Source: an uncultured Bacilli bacterium (GTDB lineage: Bacteria > Bacillota_I > Bacilli_A > RF39 > UBA660). Taken from it: DNA of 47,002 nucleotides. The notes under the pieces are model-generated. The model did not search any database and was not told the origin of the DNA. It worked only from the letters and a program-made list of their open reading frames with translations. This document shows, piece after piece, positions 37,187-43,318 of the stretch. How positions within the stretch are numbered: the first letter of the stretch is position 1; each line of letters begins with the position of its first letter. Location: contig CALVSR010000001.1 in NCBI GenBank assembly GCA_944359075.1, forward strand, positions 1-47,002, written 5' to 3'. A program made the position numbers and the translations under genes.

Positions 37187-37645
37187 CTAATTTTGATTCT
37201 TTTCTAGTTGCAATAATTTCTCTTTTACTTCTATCCCGCAAGCAAATCCCGTTAAACTACCATTTTTGCCAATTACTCGATGACACGGCACAATAATTAA
37301 TAAAGGATTATGATGAATGGCTCCTCCCACTGCTCGTACTGCTTTTGGATTTTGGATAGCTAACGCAATTTCACTATAGGAGATGGTTTTGCCATAAGGA
37401 ATTTTCAAAAGTTCTTGCCATACTTGTTTTTGAAATTCGGTACCAATCAGTTCTATTTCTATATCAAAATCTTTTCTTACTCTTAAAAAATATTCTGTTA
37501 ATTGTTTTTTGCATTTCTCTAAAAGGAGAGTTTTTCCTACTGGTTTCTCTCTTCTCGTTACTAATGTAATATTCGTAATTTTAAAACTTTGCTCTTCTAT
37601 TTCTAGAAGACCAATGGGAGTTTCTAAATAATCGTAATTTTGCAT
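37187..37645 (-). CDS. ogt: Methylated-DNA--protein-cysteine methyltransferase
   Basis: Active site PCHRVIG and the YGKTISYSEIA helix. Start set at MQNYDYLETPIG; the longer track ORF overlaps folD. Confidence 0.85.
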   Translation of the reverse strand: MQNYDYLETPIGLLEIEEQSFKITNITLVTRREKPVGKTLLLEKCKKQLTEYFLRVRKDFDIEIELIGTEFQKQVWQELLKIPYGKTISYSEIALAIQNPKAVRAVGGAIHHNPLLIIVPCHRVIGKNGSLTGFACGIEVKEKLLQLEKNQN

Positions 37646-37689
37646 CGAACCACTTTCTTTCTTTATAAAATTATCTATTTCTACTGTCA

Positions 37690-38514
37690 CTATTCTTCCA
37701 TTAATAATTTTGTAGTCTCTATCAGGTTCCAAAACAAATAGATAGGGGTTAGTTGTCCTACTCCACCTGGAACTGGTGTTATCATGGATACAATATTTTT
37801 TACAGATTCAAAATCAACATCACCAACTATTCTTCCATCTAAGTCATTCGTCCCAACATCTATAACGATTTGTCCTTCTTTAAAATACTCATCAGTAAAA
37901 TATTTAGCTTTCCCAATTGCTGAAATAATAATTTCGGCATTTTTCATGATCTCTTTTAAGTTTTCTGTCTTAGAATCACATAAAGTTACTTGATTATCTT
38001 TTCTTAAAATCTGATATAGAGGCATTCCTACTAAATTACTTTTTCCAATAATTACTATTTTTCTATTTTTTAATAAAATATTATACTCTTCCAAGACTTT
38101 TAAAACAGCTCTAGCAGTACATGGTATCATACAAGACTTTCCTTTTAATAATCTTTCTTGATTTTCTTTTGTTACTCCATCTACATCTTTTTTATAATCC
38201 ATATAATTTACTAATTCCTGATAATCAAACTTTTTTAAAATAGGTTTTTGAATCATAATACCAGTAATATCTAGATTCTCATTCAGTTCTAATATCTTCT
38301 CTATAATCTCTTCTTTAGGGGTAGACTCATTATAATTTATTTCTATCAATTCTATTCCTAAGTTTTGAGCTAATTTCCTTTTACTTCTCAAATAAATATC
38401 ATTTTCTTGAAAATATCCAATTTGAATGACTGCTAAAGTAAGTTTGCTGTTTATGCTTTGTTTTAATCTTAAAAGTTCTTTTTCTCTAATATTTTTACAT
38501 TCTAATATTTGCAT
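37690..38514 (-). CDS. folD: Bifunctional methylenetetrahydrofolate dehydrogenase/cyclohydrolase
   Basis: KDVDG, PCTA, IIGKSNLVGMP and TPVPGGVGQLT motifs. Confidence 0.88.
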   Translation of the reverse strand: MQILECKNIREKELLRLKQSINSKLTLAVIQIGYFQENDIYLRSKRKLAQNLGIELIEINYNESTPKEEIIEKILELNENLDITGIMIQKPILKKFDYQELVNYMDYKKDVDGVTKENQERLLKGKSCMIPCTARAVLKVLEEYNILLKNRKIVIIGKSNLVGMPLYQILRKDNQVTLCDSKTENLKEIMKNAEIIISAIGKAKYFTDEYFKEGQIVIDVGTNDLDGRIVGDVDFESVKNIVSMITPVPGGVGQLTPIYLFWNLIETTKLLMEE

Positions 38515-38561: not shown

Positions 38562-40520
38562 TTATTTTATTTCGTACCTTTTTACTAGGGTGTTTTCTTT
38601 CTCACCCGTACGTAGTTGCTCCTTTAATATGGAAACATAAAATGGATTAGTACTAATATAATGAATACCAATACTATTAAAAAATTCTAAATTTTCTAGA
38701 TAATTTGTATGTTCTCCACAAATACCAATATTAATATTTTTATTTCCTACTTTAGCTCTATAAATTGCTTCATTCATGAACCATTTTACTTCTTCATTTA
38801 AATAGCAAAAATCTGTATCTCTTATATCTCTCGACTTTTTCGTCACACTTTCTGTTAAATCATTTAATCCAAAAGATATAAAATGTACCAGTTGTGCAAT
38901 CTTATCGCACTGATATATCGATTCTAAATTTTCTATCATAGCTCCTAATCTGTAGTCTATTTTGTAAGAATTGTTTATATCTGAAATAACATTTTTTATA
39001 TACTCTAGAGAATACAAATCCTCTATATAGGGAACTAAGATACTTACCTTTCCACTGTATTTACTACATATTTCAAAAATAGCTTCTATCTGAGCTTTTA
39101 ATAGTTTAGTATGATGATATTCAAAATATTTTGCTCCTCTTATATTTATATCAAAATCCCAGTAATAGTGTTCCTCTAATTCTTCTCTTGTCATTACAAA
39201 ATATTTTAAAATATCTTGGATTCTAAAATCAAATAATCTTACTGTTATGGCTTCATCAGTAAAACTACTAAAAATTAATTCTAATAATTTTTTTTGTTTC
39301 TCTTTAAAATCTTCCAATAAGTTATCATTAACCTCATAATCATCTAATAAAAATAGTGAAATATATTTTTCTTTCTTTTTTCTTGAGTAAAATAAGGTTT
39401 CTGTTCTAACTAATCCAATCCCATCTCGGTTGGTAGCTAAGGTTTGTTCTATCATTTCCTTTGTATCAGCGTTTGCTAAAATCATCAGATTAGAATCCTT
39501 TTTTTCATATTCAGAAATAATAGTTTTAGCAAGAATGGGATCTCCAAATCCATTTATTTTTGCTCTACCTTTTTCATTAACTTGAAAAGAATTTCCATCT
39601 ATATCACAAGCTAAAGTTAAATCCATATCCTCTAATTTTGCAATAGAGTGCATTAAATTGCATACTTTTTGATGACCAAACTTTGTCCGTGTTGCATCCA
39701 CTTTACTCAAGTCAATTACTTCATCGATAGTAGCATTTCTTAAATTAGCATATTTGATACTATCTTTATTTTGATTGACATTAATTAATCTTACTTTTCT
39801 TGTATTACTACTTAAATTAATACACGATGAAGCTGCTCTGCTACAGTCAATAATTATTTCTCCTTCAAATGGAAAGGGAAACCTATCTATATCTCTTACA
39901 TTAGAATAATGTCCGCTAATAGCAACATTATTTTCAAATTCGTAAACTCTTCTACCAACATTGACCCATTGTTTATATTTTTTATCATCTGGAGCAATAT
40001 TCATATAGGCTTCTCTTGCTGACATAGTTCCATCCATTACCTGTTTCACATCTTTTTCACGAAAACCTAAAATAACCATAGATTTGATAAATAATTTTAT
40101 CCTTTCTTGCTTTGATAATTCTTCCCACCCATCTGCATATACATACTCTAATTCCGGTTCATAGATTTCACTATTTTTAGGTTTTAATAAGTCTGTAGAA
40201 GTATAATTATTTTTATCATCTACATTAAACATAATTGCATAATCAAACTCTAATTTATCATCTATTACTTGCCCAACTGTCAATCCTAGTTGAGTATACA
40301 TCCTACATTCAGAGTGATTAGCATACCCACGATGGCCCCACACAATTCCATCTTTTATTCGAAAAGTATCATAACTTTTGTGATTATAGGTATAGAGACG
40401 CGGAAACAAATCACACTCAAAACCAATATAATCTAATTTATCCTCATATAAATCATAAGCAAAAGAAATTAACTTTACTAGTTCTGGTTCTTCATTCTTA
40501 TAACCGTTATCTAACAACAT
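38562..40520 (-). CDS. Unrecognised 340-aa N-terminal region fused to a PPDK-type PEP/pyruvate-binding TIM-barrel domain (no phosphohistidine or ATP-grasp domain)
   Basis: aa ~345-640: ILANADT..DGIGLVRTETLFY; ITVRLFDF; RLGAMIENLES; FISFGLNDLTESV..SRD; IGICGEHTNYLENLEFFNSIGIHYISTNPFYVS. These align motif-for-motif with the C-terminal domain of pyruvate phosphate dikinase / PEP synthase. No TSHAA-type swivel-domain motif anywhere. Confidence 0.65.
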   Translation of the reverse strand: MLLDNGYKNEEPELVKLISFAYDLYEDKLDYIGFECDLFPRLYTYNHKSYDTFRIKDGIVWGHRGYANHSECRMYTQLGLTVGQVIDDKLEFDYAIMFNVDDKNNYTSTDLLKPKNSEIYEPELEYVYADGWEELSKQERIKLFIKSMVILGFREKDVKQVMDGTMSAREAYMNIAPDDKKYKQWVNVGRRVYEFENNVAISGHYSNVRDIDRFPFPFEGEIIIDCSRAASSCINLSSNTRKVRLINVNQNKDSIKYANLRNATIDEVIDLSKVDATRTKFGHQKVCNLMHSIAKLEDMDLTLACDIDGNSFQVNEKGRAKINGFGDPILAKTIISEYEKKDSNLMILANADTKEMIEQTLATNRDGIGLVRTETLFYSRKKKEKYISLFLLDDYEVNDNLLEDFKEKQKKLLELIFSSFTDEAITVRLFDFRIQDILKYFVMTREELEEHYYWDFDINIRGAKYFEYHHTKLLKAQIEAIFEICSKYSGKVSILVPYIEDLYSLEYIKNVISDINNSYKIDYRLGAMIENLESIYQCDKIAQLVHFISFGLNDLTESVTKKSRDIRDTDFCYLNEEVKWFMNEAIYRAKVGNKNINIGICGEHTNYLENLEFFNSIGIHYISTNPFYVSILKEQLRTGEKENTLVKRYEIK

Positions 40521-40683
40521 AATATGATTCCTCCTTCATATTACCAAGATAAATATTTACCATATTTGGTATCCTTTATGATAACTTATTCTCAATTCAA
40601 AATCTAGTAATATTACTTCATTTACTGTCTCTGATTTTTATAGTAAAACGAAATTATATTACCACCAACAATATTATACTAAA

Positions 40684-40722
40684 GAAAAAAAGATACTTCT
40701 ATCTATTTTAGAAATATCTTTT
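40684..40722 (-). terminator. Strong Rho-independent terminator after the ATPase/Cys-ladder operon
   Basis: Minus-strand AAGAUAUUUCU-9 nt-AGAAGUAUCUU (11 bp with one G-U pair) followed by a U7 run. Confidence 0.7.
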
Positions 40723-40763
40723 GTTAGCTGTTTAAGGAACCCAACATTATTCTAAACTTCGTT

Positions 40764-41462
40764 TCATGACTCCATAATCCAATTAATTATTTCTTTCTTA
40801 ATCATATAGTATTCTTCCTCTTCAAATTGCATATTTGCAATACAAAATCTTTTATTAGAAATATGAGAGCAAAAAATACACTCATATAAATTGGAACAAT
40901 CTTGAATAAATAAAGAATTACTGATTTTACCAGAACATATTACATTATAACTATTGCTACAGCTATTAGAATCATCTACTCGAATACAAAAATTTAAATT
41001 CGTACTTCTCTGACTAGCTAACGTATAAGTACTATCATAACATCCATCGCAAAAAATAATATTGTTGCTATCCCCGCAGTTTGTTGACTGATAAACATTT
41101 TCACACCGATAGATAGGGTCACTTTTTATAACATTGGTAGAATTATAAACTCTTTCTGTTGTTGTATAGTTAATACTTTTCCATATGCTGATAATATCTT
41201 CTAAATTATTTACCTCTTTTTTAGGTTGCATCCATCCTTTTTCATTGTCCCAAGTTTCACTATTATTATTGGTAATATACTGATGAGAGTTGATATTAGC
41301 AGTCCAAGTAACTTCATTCGTAGTAGAATCATATACTTGTTTTGGTAGTTTAATATCAAAAGCATATTTATTTAATATTTCCTCTAAAGAATTGGTATTA
41401 TTTTGTTCAAATACATTATTAAAAATTTTATTAATTATTTCCAAAGCTTTCCTATCATTCAT
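40764..41462 (-). CDS. 232-aa protein with C-terminal Cys/Asn/Ser-rich ~9-residue ladder repeats
   Basis: 11 Cys, all within aa 120-207 (positions 120, 129, 138, 141, 159, 168, 176, 189, 195, 198, 207). The ATG overlaps the ATPase stop (ATGA). Confidence 0.6.
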   Translation of the reverse strand: MNDRKALEIINKIFNNVFEQNNTNSLEEILNKYAFDIKLPKQVYDSTTNEVTWTANINSHQYITNNNSETWDNEKGWMQPKKEVNNLEDIISIWKSINYTTTERVYNSTNVIKSDPIYRCENVYQSTNCGDSNNIIFCDGCYDSTYTLASQRSTNLNFCIRVDDSNSCSNSYNVICSGKISNSLFIQDCSNLYECIFCSHISNKRFCIANMQFEEEEYYMIKKEIINWIMES

Positions 41463-43318
41463 TATTTTAATTCCTTTCTACTGGTAGAAGTTTCTTTTAA
41501 AATATCATTTAATTTTACATCACATTTAAAAGAAAACCTCTTTTTTAATGGAGATACTTCTTCTAATGAAGTATCATGATTCTTCTCACTTCTTTTTCTC
41601 GGAACAGATATAAAATCTAAAGTTGTACCTTTCATGGCAGAATATAAAACAGTTCCATTACTAATACGAACAATGCAAGTTCGATTGGGTAATTCTGTTA
41701 ACAATTTTATTTTATATTCTTTCGTATTTTCTAACGGTATATTGATATCAAAACTATCTACTAACAAATTAGCATCTAATTTAGATACACGAAAAATATA
41801 ATAATTTAAGACATTGGCAAATATTGCATCCTTTACTTCTTGACTAACTTGATTTAAATACTGTCCTGCTACAAATAATGACAAATTATATTTTCTAGCT
41901 TCTGATAAAAATCTACATACAATAGGATTTTCAATAATAGAAATTTCATCTAAAACAAAAATAATATGTTCAGAATAAGTATAAGACTGTACTAATCCTA
42001 ATAACTGTTGCATCACTAATCCCGAAATCGTTTTCGTGATTTTATCTCCTAATTTAATTCTATCTAATGAAAGAATTGTTAGAAAGTTGTCTTGAATACT
42101 TTCTTTTAAAGTACTAAAATTCATTTTATCTTCTCCAAATACTGGTAATAGTTGCATCTCATCTATAAAAGAAATAATAGGTGAAATAGCTTCTCCATAA
42201 AAATTTGTCTTTATAGAACTAAAATCATTCAAAAAGAATTCTAATACATTAACTGGCAATTTCATCTTATATTCTCGAAGTAAACTCGATCGAAACTCTA
42301 CGTCTAATAACAATTTTCTTAAAACAGCAAAATTAAAATTTTTACTGATTAATAAAAAGGAAATGGAATATCTTAATACTCTTTCTAATTTAGAATTATA
42401 TTGATCTGCTATTAATGTTTTAAATAGCGATAAAAATAGTTCTGTTTGAGAGACATAATCATCACTGATCGATTCAAATAAAGAAATAGTATCTTCTTCT
42501 TTTTTAAAATCAATAATCCTAGTATCTAAAAGGGCTCCAATATCTTTTTCTAAAGAGGCATGAGGATCGATTACTACAATTTTATATTTTAACTTCTGTT
42601 CTTTATTTTGATAAATACTATTTACAAGTAGACTAATAAATTTACTTTTTCCGCTACCACTAGAACCTAATATTAGAGAATGGCGATTAAAATCATAACT
42701 ATTTTGATCTAAGTAATAATTTCCTTGTAAATACGGAAATGTATCAATTTGTAAGATAGCAGAACCAGAGTTTTGGTTTAAAAGATTTAACTGCTTTTCT
42801 ATTTTTAAATATTTGGGTACTTTTGGATAAAAGAAACGTTTATTTTTATCAAAATCAATACTAGCAAAAAAAGAAGGAATGATAAAACATTTTCTTTTTT
42901 CTATTTTGTCGTGATAGTCAAAGTATAAAGAAGAAAAAGATAAAAAGCGATTTTTAGAAATTGGCAAAATTTCAATCACAATATATTTTAAGATTCTATT
43001 TTTTTTACTTTCGTAGTAACTATAAATATCCGCAAAATTATCATTTAAATCACAAATTACTGGAAACTTTTTTTTGATACCGATAGATAGAATTTCTTCT
43101 TTTTCTATTTTCTTTAATAAAAAATCTTCCATATTATTAATTGTAGTCGGCAACACATGATTACTTTCTATTAAATAACGGATTTTATTTTTTTCACAAC
43201 AGATAATAAGATTCCATTTTCGAAAATAGCCATTATATTTAGAAATAATATGAATAAAATCTAGCCATTTTTCGTGTGAAACATTTGAGTTGGTTAAATA
43301 AATTTCTGTTAAAACCAT
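41462..43318 (-). CDS. Soluble HerA/FtsK/VirD4-like (DUF87-like) P-loop NTPase with unrecognised 215-aa N-terminal domain
   Basis: Walker A GSSGSGKS (aa 218-225), VVIDPH, a ~190-aa insert, Walker B IIFVLDE (aa 452-458), EARKYNLSLFVAGQ. No TM segment. Confidence 0.75.
   Translation of the reverse strand: MVLTEIYLTNSNVSHEKWLDFIHIISKYNGYFRKWNLIICCEKNKIRYLIESNHVLPTTINNMEDFLLKKIEKEEILSIGIKKKFPVICDLNDNFADIYSYYESKKNRILKYIVIEILPISKNRFLSFSSLYFDYHDKIEKRKCFIIPSFFASIDFDKNKRFFYPKVPKYLKIEKQLNLLNQNSGSAILQIDTFPYLQGNYYLDQNSYDFNRHSLILGSSGSGKSKFISLLVNSIYQNKEQKLKYKIVVIDPHASLEKDIGALLDTRIIDFKKEEDTISLFESISDDYVSQTELFLSLFKTLIADQYNSKLERVLRYSISFLLISKNFNFAVLRKLLLDVEFRSSLLREYKMKLPVNVLEFFLNDFSSIKTNFYGEAISPIISFIDEMQLLPVFGEDKMNFSTLKESIQDNFLTILSLDRIKLGDKITKTISGLVMQQLLGLVQSYTYSEHIIFVLDEISIIENPIVCRFLSEARKYNLSLFVAGQYLNQVSQEVKDAIFANVLNYYIFRVSKLDANLLVDSFDINIPLENTKEYKIKLLTELPNRTCIVRISNGTVLYSAMKGTTLDFISVPRKRSEKNHDTSLEEVSPLKKRFSFKCDVKLNDILKETSTSRKELK

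Follow-up and report, generated by a model that had tools for sequence, protein, structure and literature searches.

A PPDK-type phosphoenolpyruvate/pyruvate barrel joined to an unrecognised N-terminal domain in uncultured gut Bacilli

The gene described here lies in a 47,002-nucleotide stretch of DNA (the window; contig CALVSR010000001.1 of assembly GCA_944359075.1) from an uncultured Bacilli bacterium, with the composition of a low-GC (about 29%) bacterial chromosome. It encodes a protein, P0001, whose C-terminal half is a TIM barrel of the kind that binds phosphoenolpyruvate (PEP) and pyruvate in pyruvate phosphate dikinase (PPDK). Judging from its sequence, the barrel retains an intact PPDK-type Mg2+-PEP/pyruvate site, comprising the residues that bind PEP and Mg2+ and protonate the enolate in PPDK and Enzyme I (EI). 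On balance, P0001 probably acts by itself as a catalytically competent PEP/pyruvate enzyme with a new architecture and is unconnected with the ATPase pair encoded upstream. The gene and its parts are:

38562..40520, minus strand: whole open reading frame (ORF) of P0001, 652 aa plus stop
39519..40520, minus strand: N-terminal domain (N-domain), aa 1–334, conserved, without a match in the PDB or BFVD structure libraries
39495..39518, minus strand: inter-domain linker, aa 335–342, of low model confidence and of variable length across the family
38607..39494, minus strand: PPDK-like PEP-utilizers_C TIM barrel, aa 343–638, recognised by Pfam, hhalign and Foldseek

The assignment of the C-terminal part to the PPDK-type barrels, made in an earlier note from motifs alone, is borne out by profile and structure comparisons. 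The motifs quoted there (GIGLVRTE, VRLFDF, GAMIEN, SFGLNDLT..SRD, GICGEH, and ANLRNATIDEVIDLSKVDATRTKF) all occur in P0001. In a Pfam scan of the protein, PF02896 matches aa 343–638 with an E value of 1.3e-35 and nothing else is significant; neither PF00391 nor PF01326 was matched. The best NCBIfam match is PPDK (equivalog TIGR01828), with 114 bits against a cut-off of 843 bits and only over model positions 518–856. The models of PpsA (79 and 70 bits) and EI (60 bits) are more distant, and they too match through their C-terminal barrels only and far under their cut-offs, which are 341 bits or more for EI against a score of 60 or less. A profile of the P0001 family aligned with 11 full-length PPDKs matches in the barrel alone, with an hhalign probability of 100% and an E value of 9e-47. 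A phmmer search of PDB sequences leads to the PPDK of Clostridium symbiosum (E 2e-17). The full-length AlphaFold2 model of P0001 has a mean predicted local distance difference test score (pLDDT) of 86.7 and a predicted template modelling score (pTM) of 0.76. Foldseek matches this model to the barrels of PPDK, PpsA, and EI at E values of about 1e-20 to 1e-11, and the next matches, at 1e-5 to 1e-4, are the barrels of malyl-CoA lyase, HpcH/HpaI, and pyruvate kinase.

The active-site residues of PPDK can be located one by one in P0001. In the phmmer alignment, R372, R428, and D431 correspond without gaps to R561, R617, and D620 of C. symbiosum PPDK. E530, N553/D554, and C601 occupy the matching GxMIE, NDLT, and GICGEH motifs, and correspond to E745, N768/D769, and C831 of PPDK. 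The codons concerned are:

39405..39407, minus strand: R372, equivalent to PPDK R561, which binds the PEP phosphate
39237..39239, minus strand: R428, equivalent to PPDK R617
38931..38933, minus strand: E530, equivalent to PPDK E745, a Mg2+ ligand
38859..38864, minus strand: N553 and D554, equivalent to PPDK N768/D769, for substrate and Mg2+
38829..38831, minus strand: R564, the Arg of the SRD motif
38718..38720, minus strand: C601 in GICGEH, equivalent to PPDK C831, the proton donor to the pyruvate enolate

Conservation was scored in an alignment of 29 family members that are 29–56% identical to the query. R372, E374, R428, E530, D554, R564, and C601 do not vary among the 29, and D431, N553, and H604 reach at least 90% conservation. 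The earlier note had allowed that the barrel might be a degenerate domain that had lost its substrate-binding residues; they are retained throughout the alignment.

PPDK, PEP synthase, and EI follow the textbook swivelling-domain mechanism, and to our knowledge the PEP barrel of every characterised member works only via a mobile phospho-histidine domain. P0001 has in common with C. symbiosum PPDK (PDB 1DIK/1KBL/2R82) the barrel fold and the active-site set, and PPDK is its best hidden Markov model, PDB, and Foldseek match. However, PPDK carries an ATP-grasp domain (PF01326) and a phospho-His swivel domain (PF00391, with a TSH motif), whereas P0001 has an unrelated 334-residue domain in their stead. 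Two PPDK-specific insertions are also missing from its barrel. PpsA and EI of the phosphotransferase system (PDB 8A8E, 9DAE, 2XZ9, 2HWG) possess a homologous barrel with the same Arg/Glu/Asn-Asp/Cys constellation, but P0001 contains neither a His domain nor an HPr-binding domain. Since it has no swivel His, ATP-grasp, or HPr-binding domain, P0001 is not to be filed as a PPDK, a PpsA, or an EI.

A separate protein might in principle supply the missing parts. In such an ordinary split PPDK or PpsA, phosphate would reach the barrel in trans, from a His-domain/ATP-grasp protein or from the resident PPDK. The barrel is indeed closest to PPDK, and a canonical PPDK is encoded in the genome to which the window belongs (1.34 Mb, 92% complete). 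This genome has exactly two PF02896 matches, P0001 and the canonical PPDK, an 882-codon open frame on another contig. The latter carries the only PF00391 domain of the genome, which makes a split enzyme unlikely. The same fact indicates that the genome encodes no EI, as judged from a PF02896/PF00391 scan without a directed search for HPr or EII. At 23 family loci, none of the adjoining genes encodes a His domain or an ATP-grasp domain. The barrels of P0001 and the resident PPDK are only 26% identical. In a search with the barrel alone, family members score 129 bits or more and carry PF02896 only, whereas canonical PPDKs score 90 bits or less at 24–28% identity. The family barrel is, moreover, almost always fused to its own N-domain. 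The His-domain partner that the earlier note had named as an ordinary explanation is not found in this genome outside the canonical PPDK, and a split enzyme is very improbable.

The N-domain is predicted to contain an α+β part and an irregular, β-rich part. In the AlphaFold2 model, the former consists of helices at aa 12–37, a six-stranded sheet at aa 51–126, helices at aa 137–181, and hairpins at aa 183–202; the latter spans aa 203–334. The N-domain modelled alone reaches a pLDDT of 88.5 and a pTM of 0.81. The linker that follows is poorly defined, with a pLDDT below 50 for aa 335–341 in the full-length model, and the segment equivalent to aa 322–346 varies from 11 to 33 residues across the 29 members.

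The N-domain resembles no domain in the libraries searched, in keeping with the earlier description of the first 340 residues as unrecognisable. For the N-terminal region, Pfam, NCBIfam, PHROGs, and PADLOC gave no match; when PDB sequences were searched with a profile and 15 members were scanned with Pfam, nothing consistent emerged. Foldseek returned nothing under an E value of 0.07 in PDB or BFVD (best E 0.15 and 0.075, respectively), and no PPDK/EI central domain was matched. A cryptic His or ATP-grasp domain was rejected, because the comparison with the full-length PPDK profile matches the barrel only and gives the N-domain an hhalign probability of 0.4%, and Foldseek is likewise negative. 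The top Foldseek matches, to NTF2/SnoaL-like folds over aa 12–126, have a probability of 0.09 or less and a TM score below 0.25 and are a weak lead only. A pentapeptide-repeat reading of aa 259–282 did not hold up: aa 205–335 display no clear hydrophobic periodicity, be it of 5 residues or of 20–24, and neither pentapeptide nor leucine-rich-repeat-like families were matched by Foldseek or Pfam.

The N-domain is at least as well conserved as the barrel, with a mean pairwise identity of 38% against 36%. P215, D225, and G282 are the same in all 29 aligned members, and conservation is 90% or more at F216-P217-F218, I265, and E267. The most conserved histidine, H69, is located in a loop between the predicted strands 58–66 and 74–86, and is present in 24 of 24 members of one alignment and 28 of 29 of another. 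Some members carry E-Q in place of the H283/H284 pair, which is therefore not essential. Two features of the N-domain can be placed on the DNA:

39846..39878, minus strand: PFPF(E/D)G...DC motif, aa 215–225, with P215 and D225 invariant
40314..40316, minus strand: H69 codon, in the motif (N/D)H(S/T)

A word-indexed search of 5.8 billion proteins yielded about 197 full-length homologs of roughly 595–666 aa. All contain PF02896 only and, where named, are listed as 'hypothetical protein' of metagenome-assembled genomes (MAGs) of uncultured Bacilli. An exhaustive phmmer search with aa 1–340 found only 32 proteins among 1.84 billion cluster representatives, most of them 595–697 aa long. PF02896 is present in six of the eight matches that were checked in Pfam; the other two, of 269 and 390 aa, are short and seem truncated. 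Short 'barrel-only' matches are either fragments or copies with a frameshift. No description of this architecture, a PPDK-type barrel with this N-domain, was found in the literature searched.

The family is rare. A pattern scan of one genome per species, covering 185,579 species, gave 16 loci, all in MAGs of uncultured gut bacteria (mouse, goat, rumen, and other sources) labelled 'Bacilli bacterium', Mycoplasmatota, or Erysipelotrichaceae. An additional locus lies on a 4-kb contig binned as Methanosphaera, probably by mis-binning. The N-domain is present in 3 of 301 genomes of the window's own order, one of them (G091) as an eroded pseudogene, and in none of seven congeners of the window's genome. 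The gene is thus a rare, patchy, and dispensable accessory gene. Carriage as phage or plasmid cargo was rejected, as a tblastn search with the N-domain gave no match in 50,697 phage or 72,556 plasmid records, and membership in a defence system was rejected because P0001 matches nothing in PADLOC or PHROGs. At one metagenomic locus (L027:1-13836, ERZ24911412 NODE_705), the homolog P0074 adjoins a Mob_Pre relaxase, a large serine recombinase, a Schlafen/AlbA_2-HATPase gene, and a 271-aa radical SAM gene. In this setting the gene looks like cargo of an integrative mobilisable element.

Eroded or frameshifted copies exist in several relatives. The copy at G091:C2:66816-67317, in the same family as the window's genome, contains four in-frame stops, and that at G467:C16:11550-12269 has a TGA. 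At L029:791-2739, one A is missing from an A-run within an ANAD motif, and the resulting frameshift separates P0181 from a 348-aa upstream gene. A 1-nt frameshift near residue 220 is found at L030:2674-4579 (P0182), and the copy at L010:6039-8002 is read as two ORFs. P0181 and P0182 are therefore not natural two-gene forms, as both arise from 1-nt frameshifts. The gene seems to be frequently lost, but some of the decayed copies could be assembly errors. In a divergent member of 871 aa, P0133, catalytic residues of the barrel are replaced, with GVMIA for GAMIE, DTSALAY for GTNDLTE, and Lys for the second Arg, and the C-terminus is extended by about 260 aa of low complexity. P0133 may have degenerated or taken on a new function.

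These copies give some colour to the view that P0001 itself is a decaying, functionless relic of PPDK. However, its ORF is intact, about 197 full-length homologs at 29–60% identity keep the catalytic residues, and the N-domain is not derived from PPDK. We give the relic almost no weight.

If P0001 is an active enzyme, it would be a self-contained cytoplasmic protein of a small unnamed family descended from the PEP/pyruvate-binding TIM barrel of PPDK. The ATP-grasp and swivel domains are replaced by the 334-residue domain, tethered by the short variable linker. The barrel would bind Mg2+-PEP or, in the reverse direction, pyruvate. The phosphoryl group would leave PEP, and C601 would protonate the enolate to give pyruvate. 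The acceptor would be other than the canonical swivel histidine and would be supplied or positioned by the N-domain. It could be an N-domain residue that relays the phosphate, for which the near-invariant H69, in a β-hairpin loop, is the best candidate, or a small-molecule or protein substrate held by the N-domain. Phosphotransfer to a new acceptor is, as a specific mechanism, a possibility that we hold with some doubt. The fuller proposal, a new class of PEP-utilising enzyme without a swivel domain, in which the N-domain either carries the H69 acceptor or binds a substrate that is phosphorylated directly at the barrel, is at least as tentative.

Several points weigh against the enzyme reading and its mechanism. 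The preference for phosphoryl transfer over other PEP/pyruvate chemistry follows only from the retention of residues. H69 is not absolutely invariant, since the divergent member P0143 has Asp in the aligned column. The AlphaFold2 models were built on a shallow alignment of 15–24 sequences. In addition, the decayed copies (G091, G467, L029, L030, and P0133) show that the gene is dispensable, and its function may be waning in some lineages.

The barrel could instead perform a different reaction on PEP or pyruvate, such as PEP hydrolysis, enolpyruvyl transfer, or aldolase/lyase C–C chemistry, with the N-domain binding the co-substrate. HpcH/HpaI aldolase, malyl-CoA lyase, and pyruvate kinase have the superfamily fold and perform Mg2+-pyruvate/enolate chemistry. 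Their barrels rank next after PPDK/EI in Foldseek, many family members give weak matches to PF03328 (HpcH_HpaI), and P0001 has no canonical phospho-acceptor domain. These enzymes are, however, far more distant than PPDK. The HpcH matches span a mere 75 aa or so, are weak, and lie beneath a far stronger PF02896 match, and the strength of the hhalign match to PPDK also speaks for the dikinase lineage. Moreover, the retained residues are specifically the PPDK/EI set; the phosphate-binding Arg pair and the Cys of GICGEH are of the PPDK/EI type. Such chemistry is unlikely, yet it merits consideration beside phosphotransfer.

A non-catalytic role is improbable. P0001 would then be a PEP or pyruvate sensor, with the N-domain as an output or interaction module, which would suit an N-domain without a recognisable catalytic motif and the lack of a conserved enzymatic partner gene. 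However, binding-only domains usually lose their catalytic residues, whereas the Mg2+ ligands and the Cys are invariant in all 29 members here, and neither Pfam nor Foldseek detected a DNA-binding or signalling domain.

P0001 is encoded directly behind two genes of the same strand, to which the earlier note had tentatively linked it. The genes and the signals between them and P0001 are:

41462-43318, minus strand: DUF87/HerA-like P-loop ATPase, upstream of P0001
40764-41462, same strand as P0001: Cys-ladder protein of 232 aa, the upstream neighbour
40681..40725, minus strand: A/U-rich hairpin followed by a U-run, likely the intrinsic terminator of the upstream HerA-like/Cys-ladder operon
40673..40678, minus strand: TATAAT hexamer resembling a –10 element, just downstream of the terminator; a tentative promoter of the gene's own, giving a leader of about 150 nt
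40530..40537, minus strand: strong ribosome-binding site (RBS) GAAGGAGG, 9 nt ahead of the ATG

Could P0001 be the third component of a HerA-like ATPase/Cys-ladder module? The genes are adjacent on one strand in the window, and an ATPase ortholog is present in 10 of 17 family-positive genomes compared with 31 of 298 in the order sample (raw odds ratio 12, p 5e-6). However, homologs of the ATPase or the Cys-ladder protein are found near none of 18 other family loci (over as much as 8 kb of flank, or less where a contig stops sooner), and in the two genomes compared, G301 and G310, the ATPase and the PEP-barrel gene are on different contigs. The raw co-occurrence looks like a lineage effect, because about 45–55% of close relatives carry the ATPase anyway: for the two family-positive genomes G310 and G308, it occurs in 9 of about 21 nearest relatives in one case and in 11 of about 20 in the other, most of these ATPase-bearing relatives being absent from the family loci found, although their family status was not tested directly. 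The enrichment over the 11% background thus disappears within the relevant clades. A functional link was rejected on neighbourhood, co-occurrence, and clade-matched background, and the chance of a three-component module is slimmer than that of a split PPDK. The ATPase is itself patchy, occurring in 33 of 301 genomes and 24 of 127 genera of the order and in about 45–55% of genomes in two sub-clades, and two of its copies (G043 and G267) are pseudogenes.

The hairpin and U-run between the genes also argue against a common module, and they agree with the earlier placement of the gene behind the terminator of the upstream operon. The hairpin has 17-nt arms (40685-40701 and 40709-40725) that are 88% complementary and a 7-nt loop; a stricter terminator scan did not pick it up. 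A promoter scan revealed no –35 element to match the TATAAT hexamer. By its sequence signals, the gene carries an RBS of its own and probably a separate promoter as well. The intergenic leader folds better than shuffled controls (z = -2.84). Within the leader (40521-40672), a perfect palindrome, TACCAAATATGGTA, is located at 40558-40571 on the minus strand, some 40 nt ahead of the start codon. The palindrome and the leader could be an operator or a regulatory leader; a riboswitch was rejected, as the roughly 150-nt leader has no Rfam match.

On the downstream side, folD (37690-38514, minus strand) begins 47 nt past the stop of the PEP-barrel gene, with no terminator detected between them, and 43 nt are shared by folD and ogt (37187-37732, minus strand). 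In the window the three genes may be transcribed together, an arrangement that other family loci do not show. No neighbour gene is conserved across the 23 family loci. Genes for NUDIX, HAD, MBL-fold, inositol-monophosphatase-like, GDPD, GNAT, and radical SAM proteins recur nearby. A NUDIX/HAD partner was rejected: the genes are often close by, but the NUDIX proteins are 28–35% identical and not orthologous. A 356-aa radical SAM protein, which matches the NCBIfam variant_rSAM model and is weakly MSMEG_0568-like, is encoded next to the gene in five loci of one clade whose family proteins are 611–619 aa long (L004:9864-10934, L015:6794-7864, L018:9828-10898, L020:4067-5137, and L021:1837-2907). 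It lies downstream in four and upstream in one, with a gap of about 16–140 nt. It was rejected as a conserved partner because it is confined to this clade and absent from the window's own genome, and the radical SAM protein of L027 is unrelated.

The practical scope of the finding is limited, as the gene is rare (16 of 185,579 species genomes), patchy, and dispensable, and confined to uncultured gut Bacilli. The family nevertheless adds an uncharacterised domain with a confident model that matches nothing in PDB or BFVD. Rifampin phosphotransferase and relatives such as B. subtilis YvkC, which possess an ATP-grasp and a swivel His domain but no PEP barrel, are cases in which the same toolkit was cut down and redeployed on a new substrate. 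They would be a mirror image of P0001: they keep the ATP-grasp domain and the His carrier, whereas P0001 keeps the barrel and adds a new domain. If the proposed phosphotransfer is true, P0001 would amount to a PEP-dependent kinase that makes use of a dikinase barrel, in uncultured gut Bacilli with small genomes, and could provide a new PEP-dependent activity for biocatalysis. A natural, conserved lineage with a fully equipped barrel, in which an unrelated domain has taken the place of the carrier and nucleotide-binding domains, would show another way to spend the phosphoryl-transfer potential of PEP.

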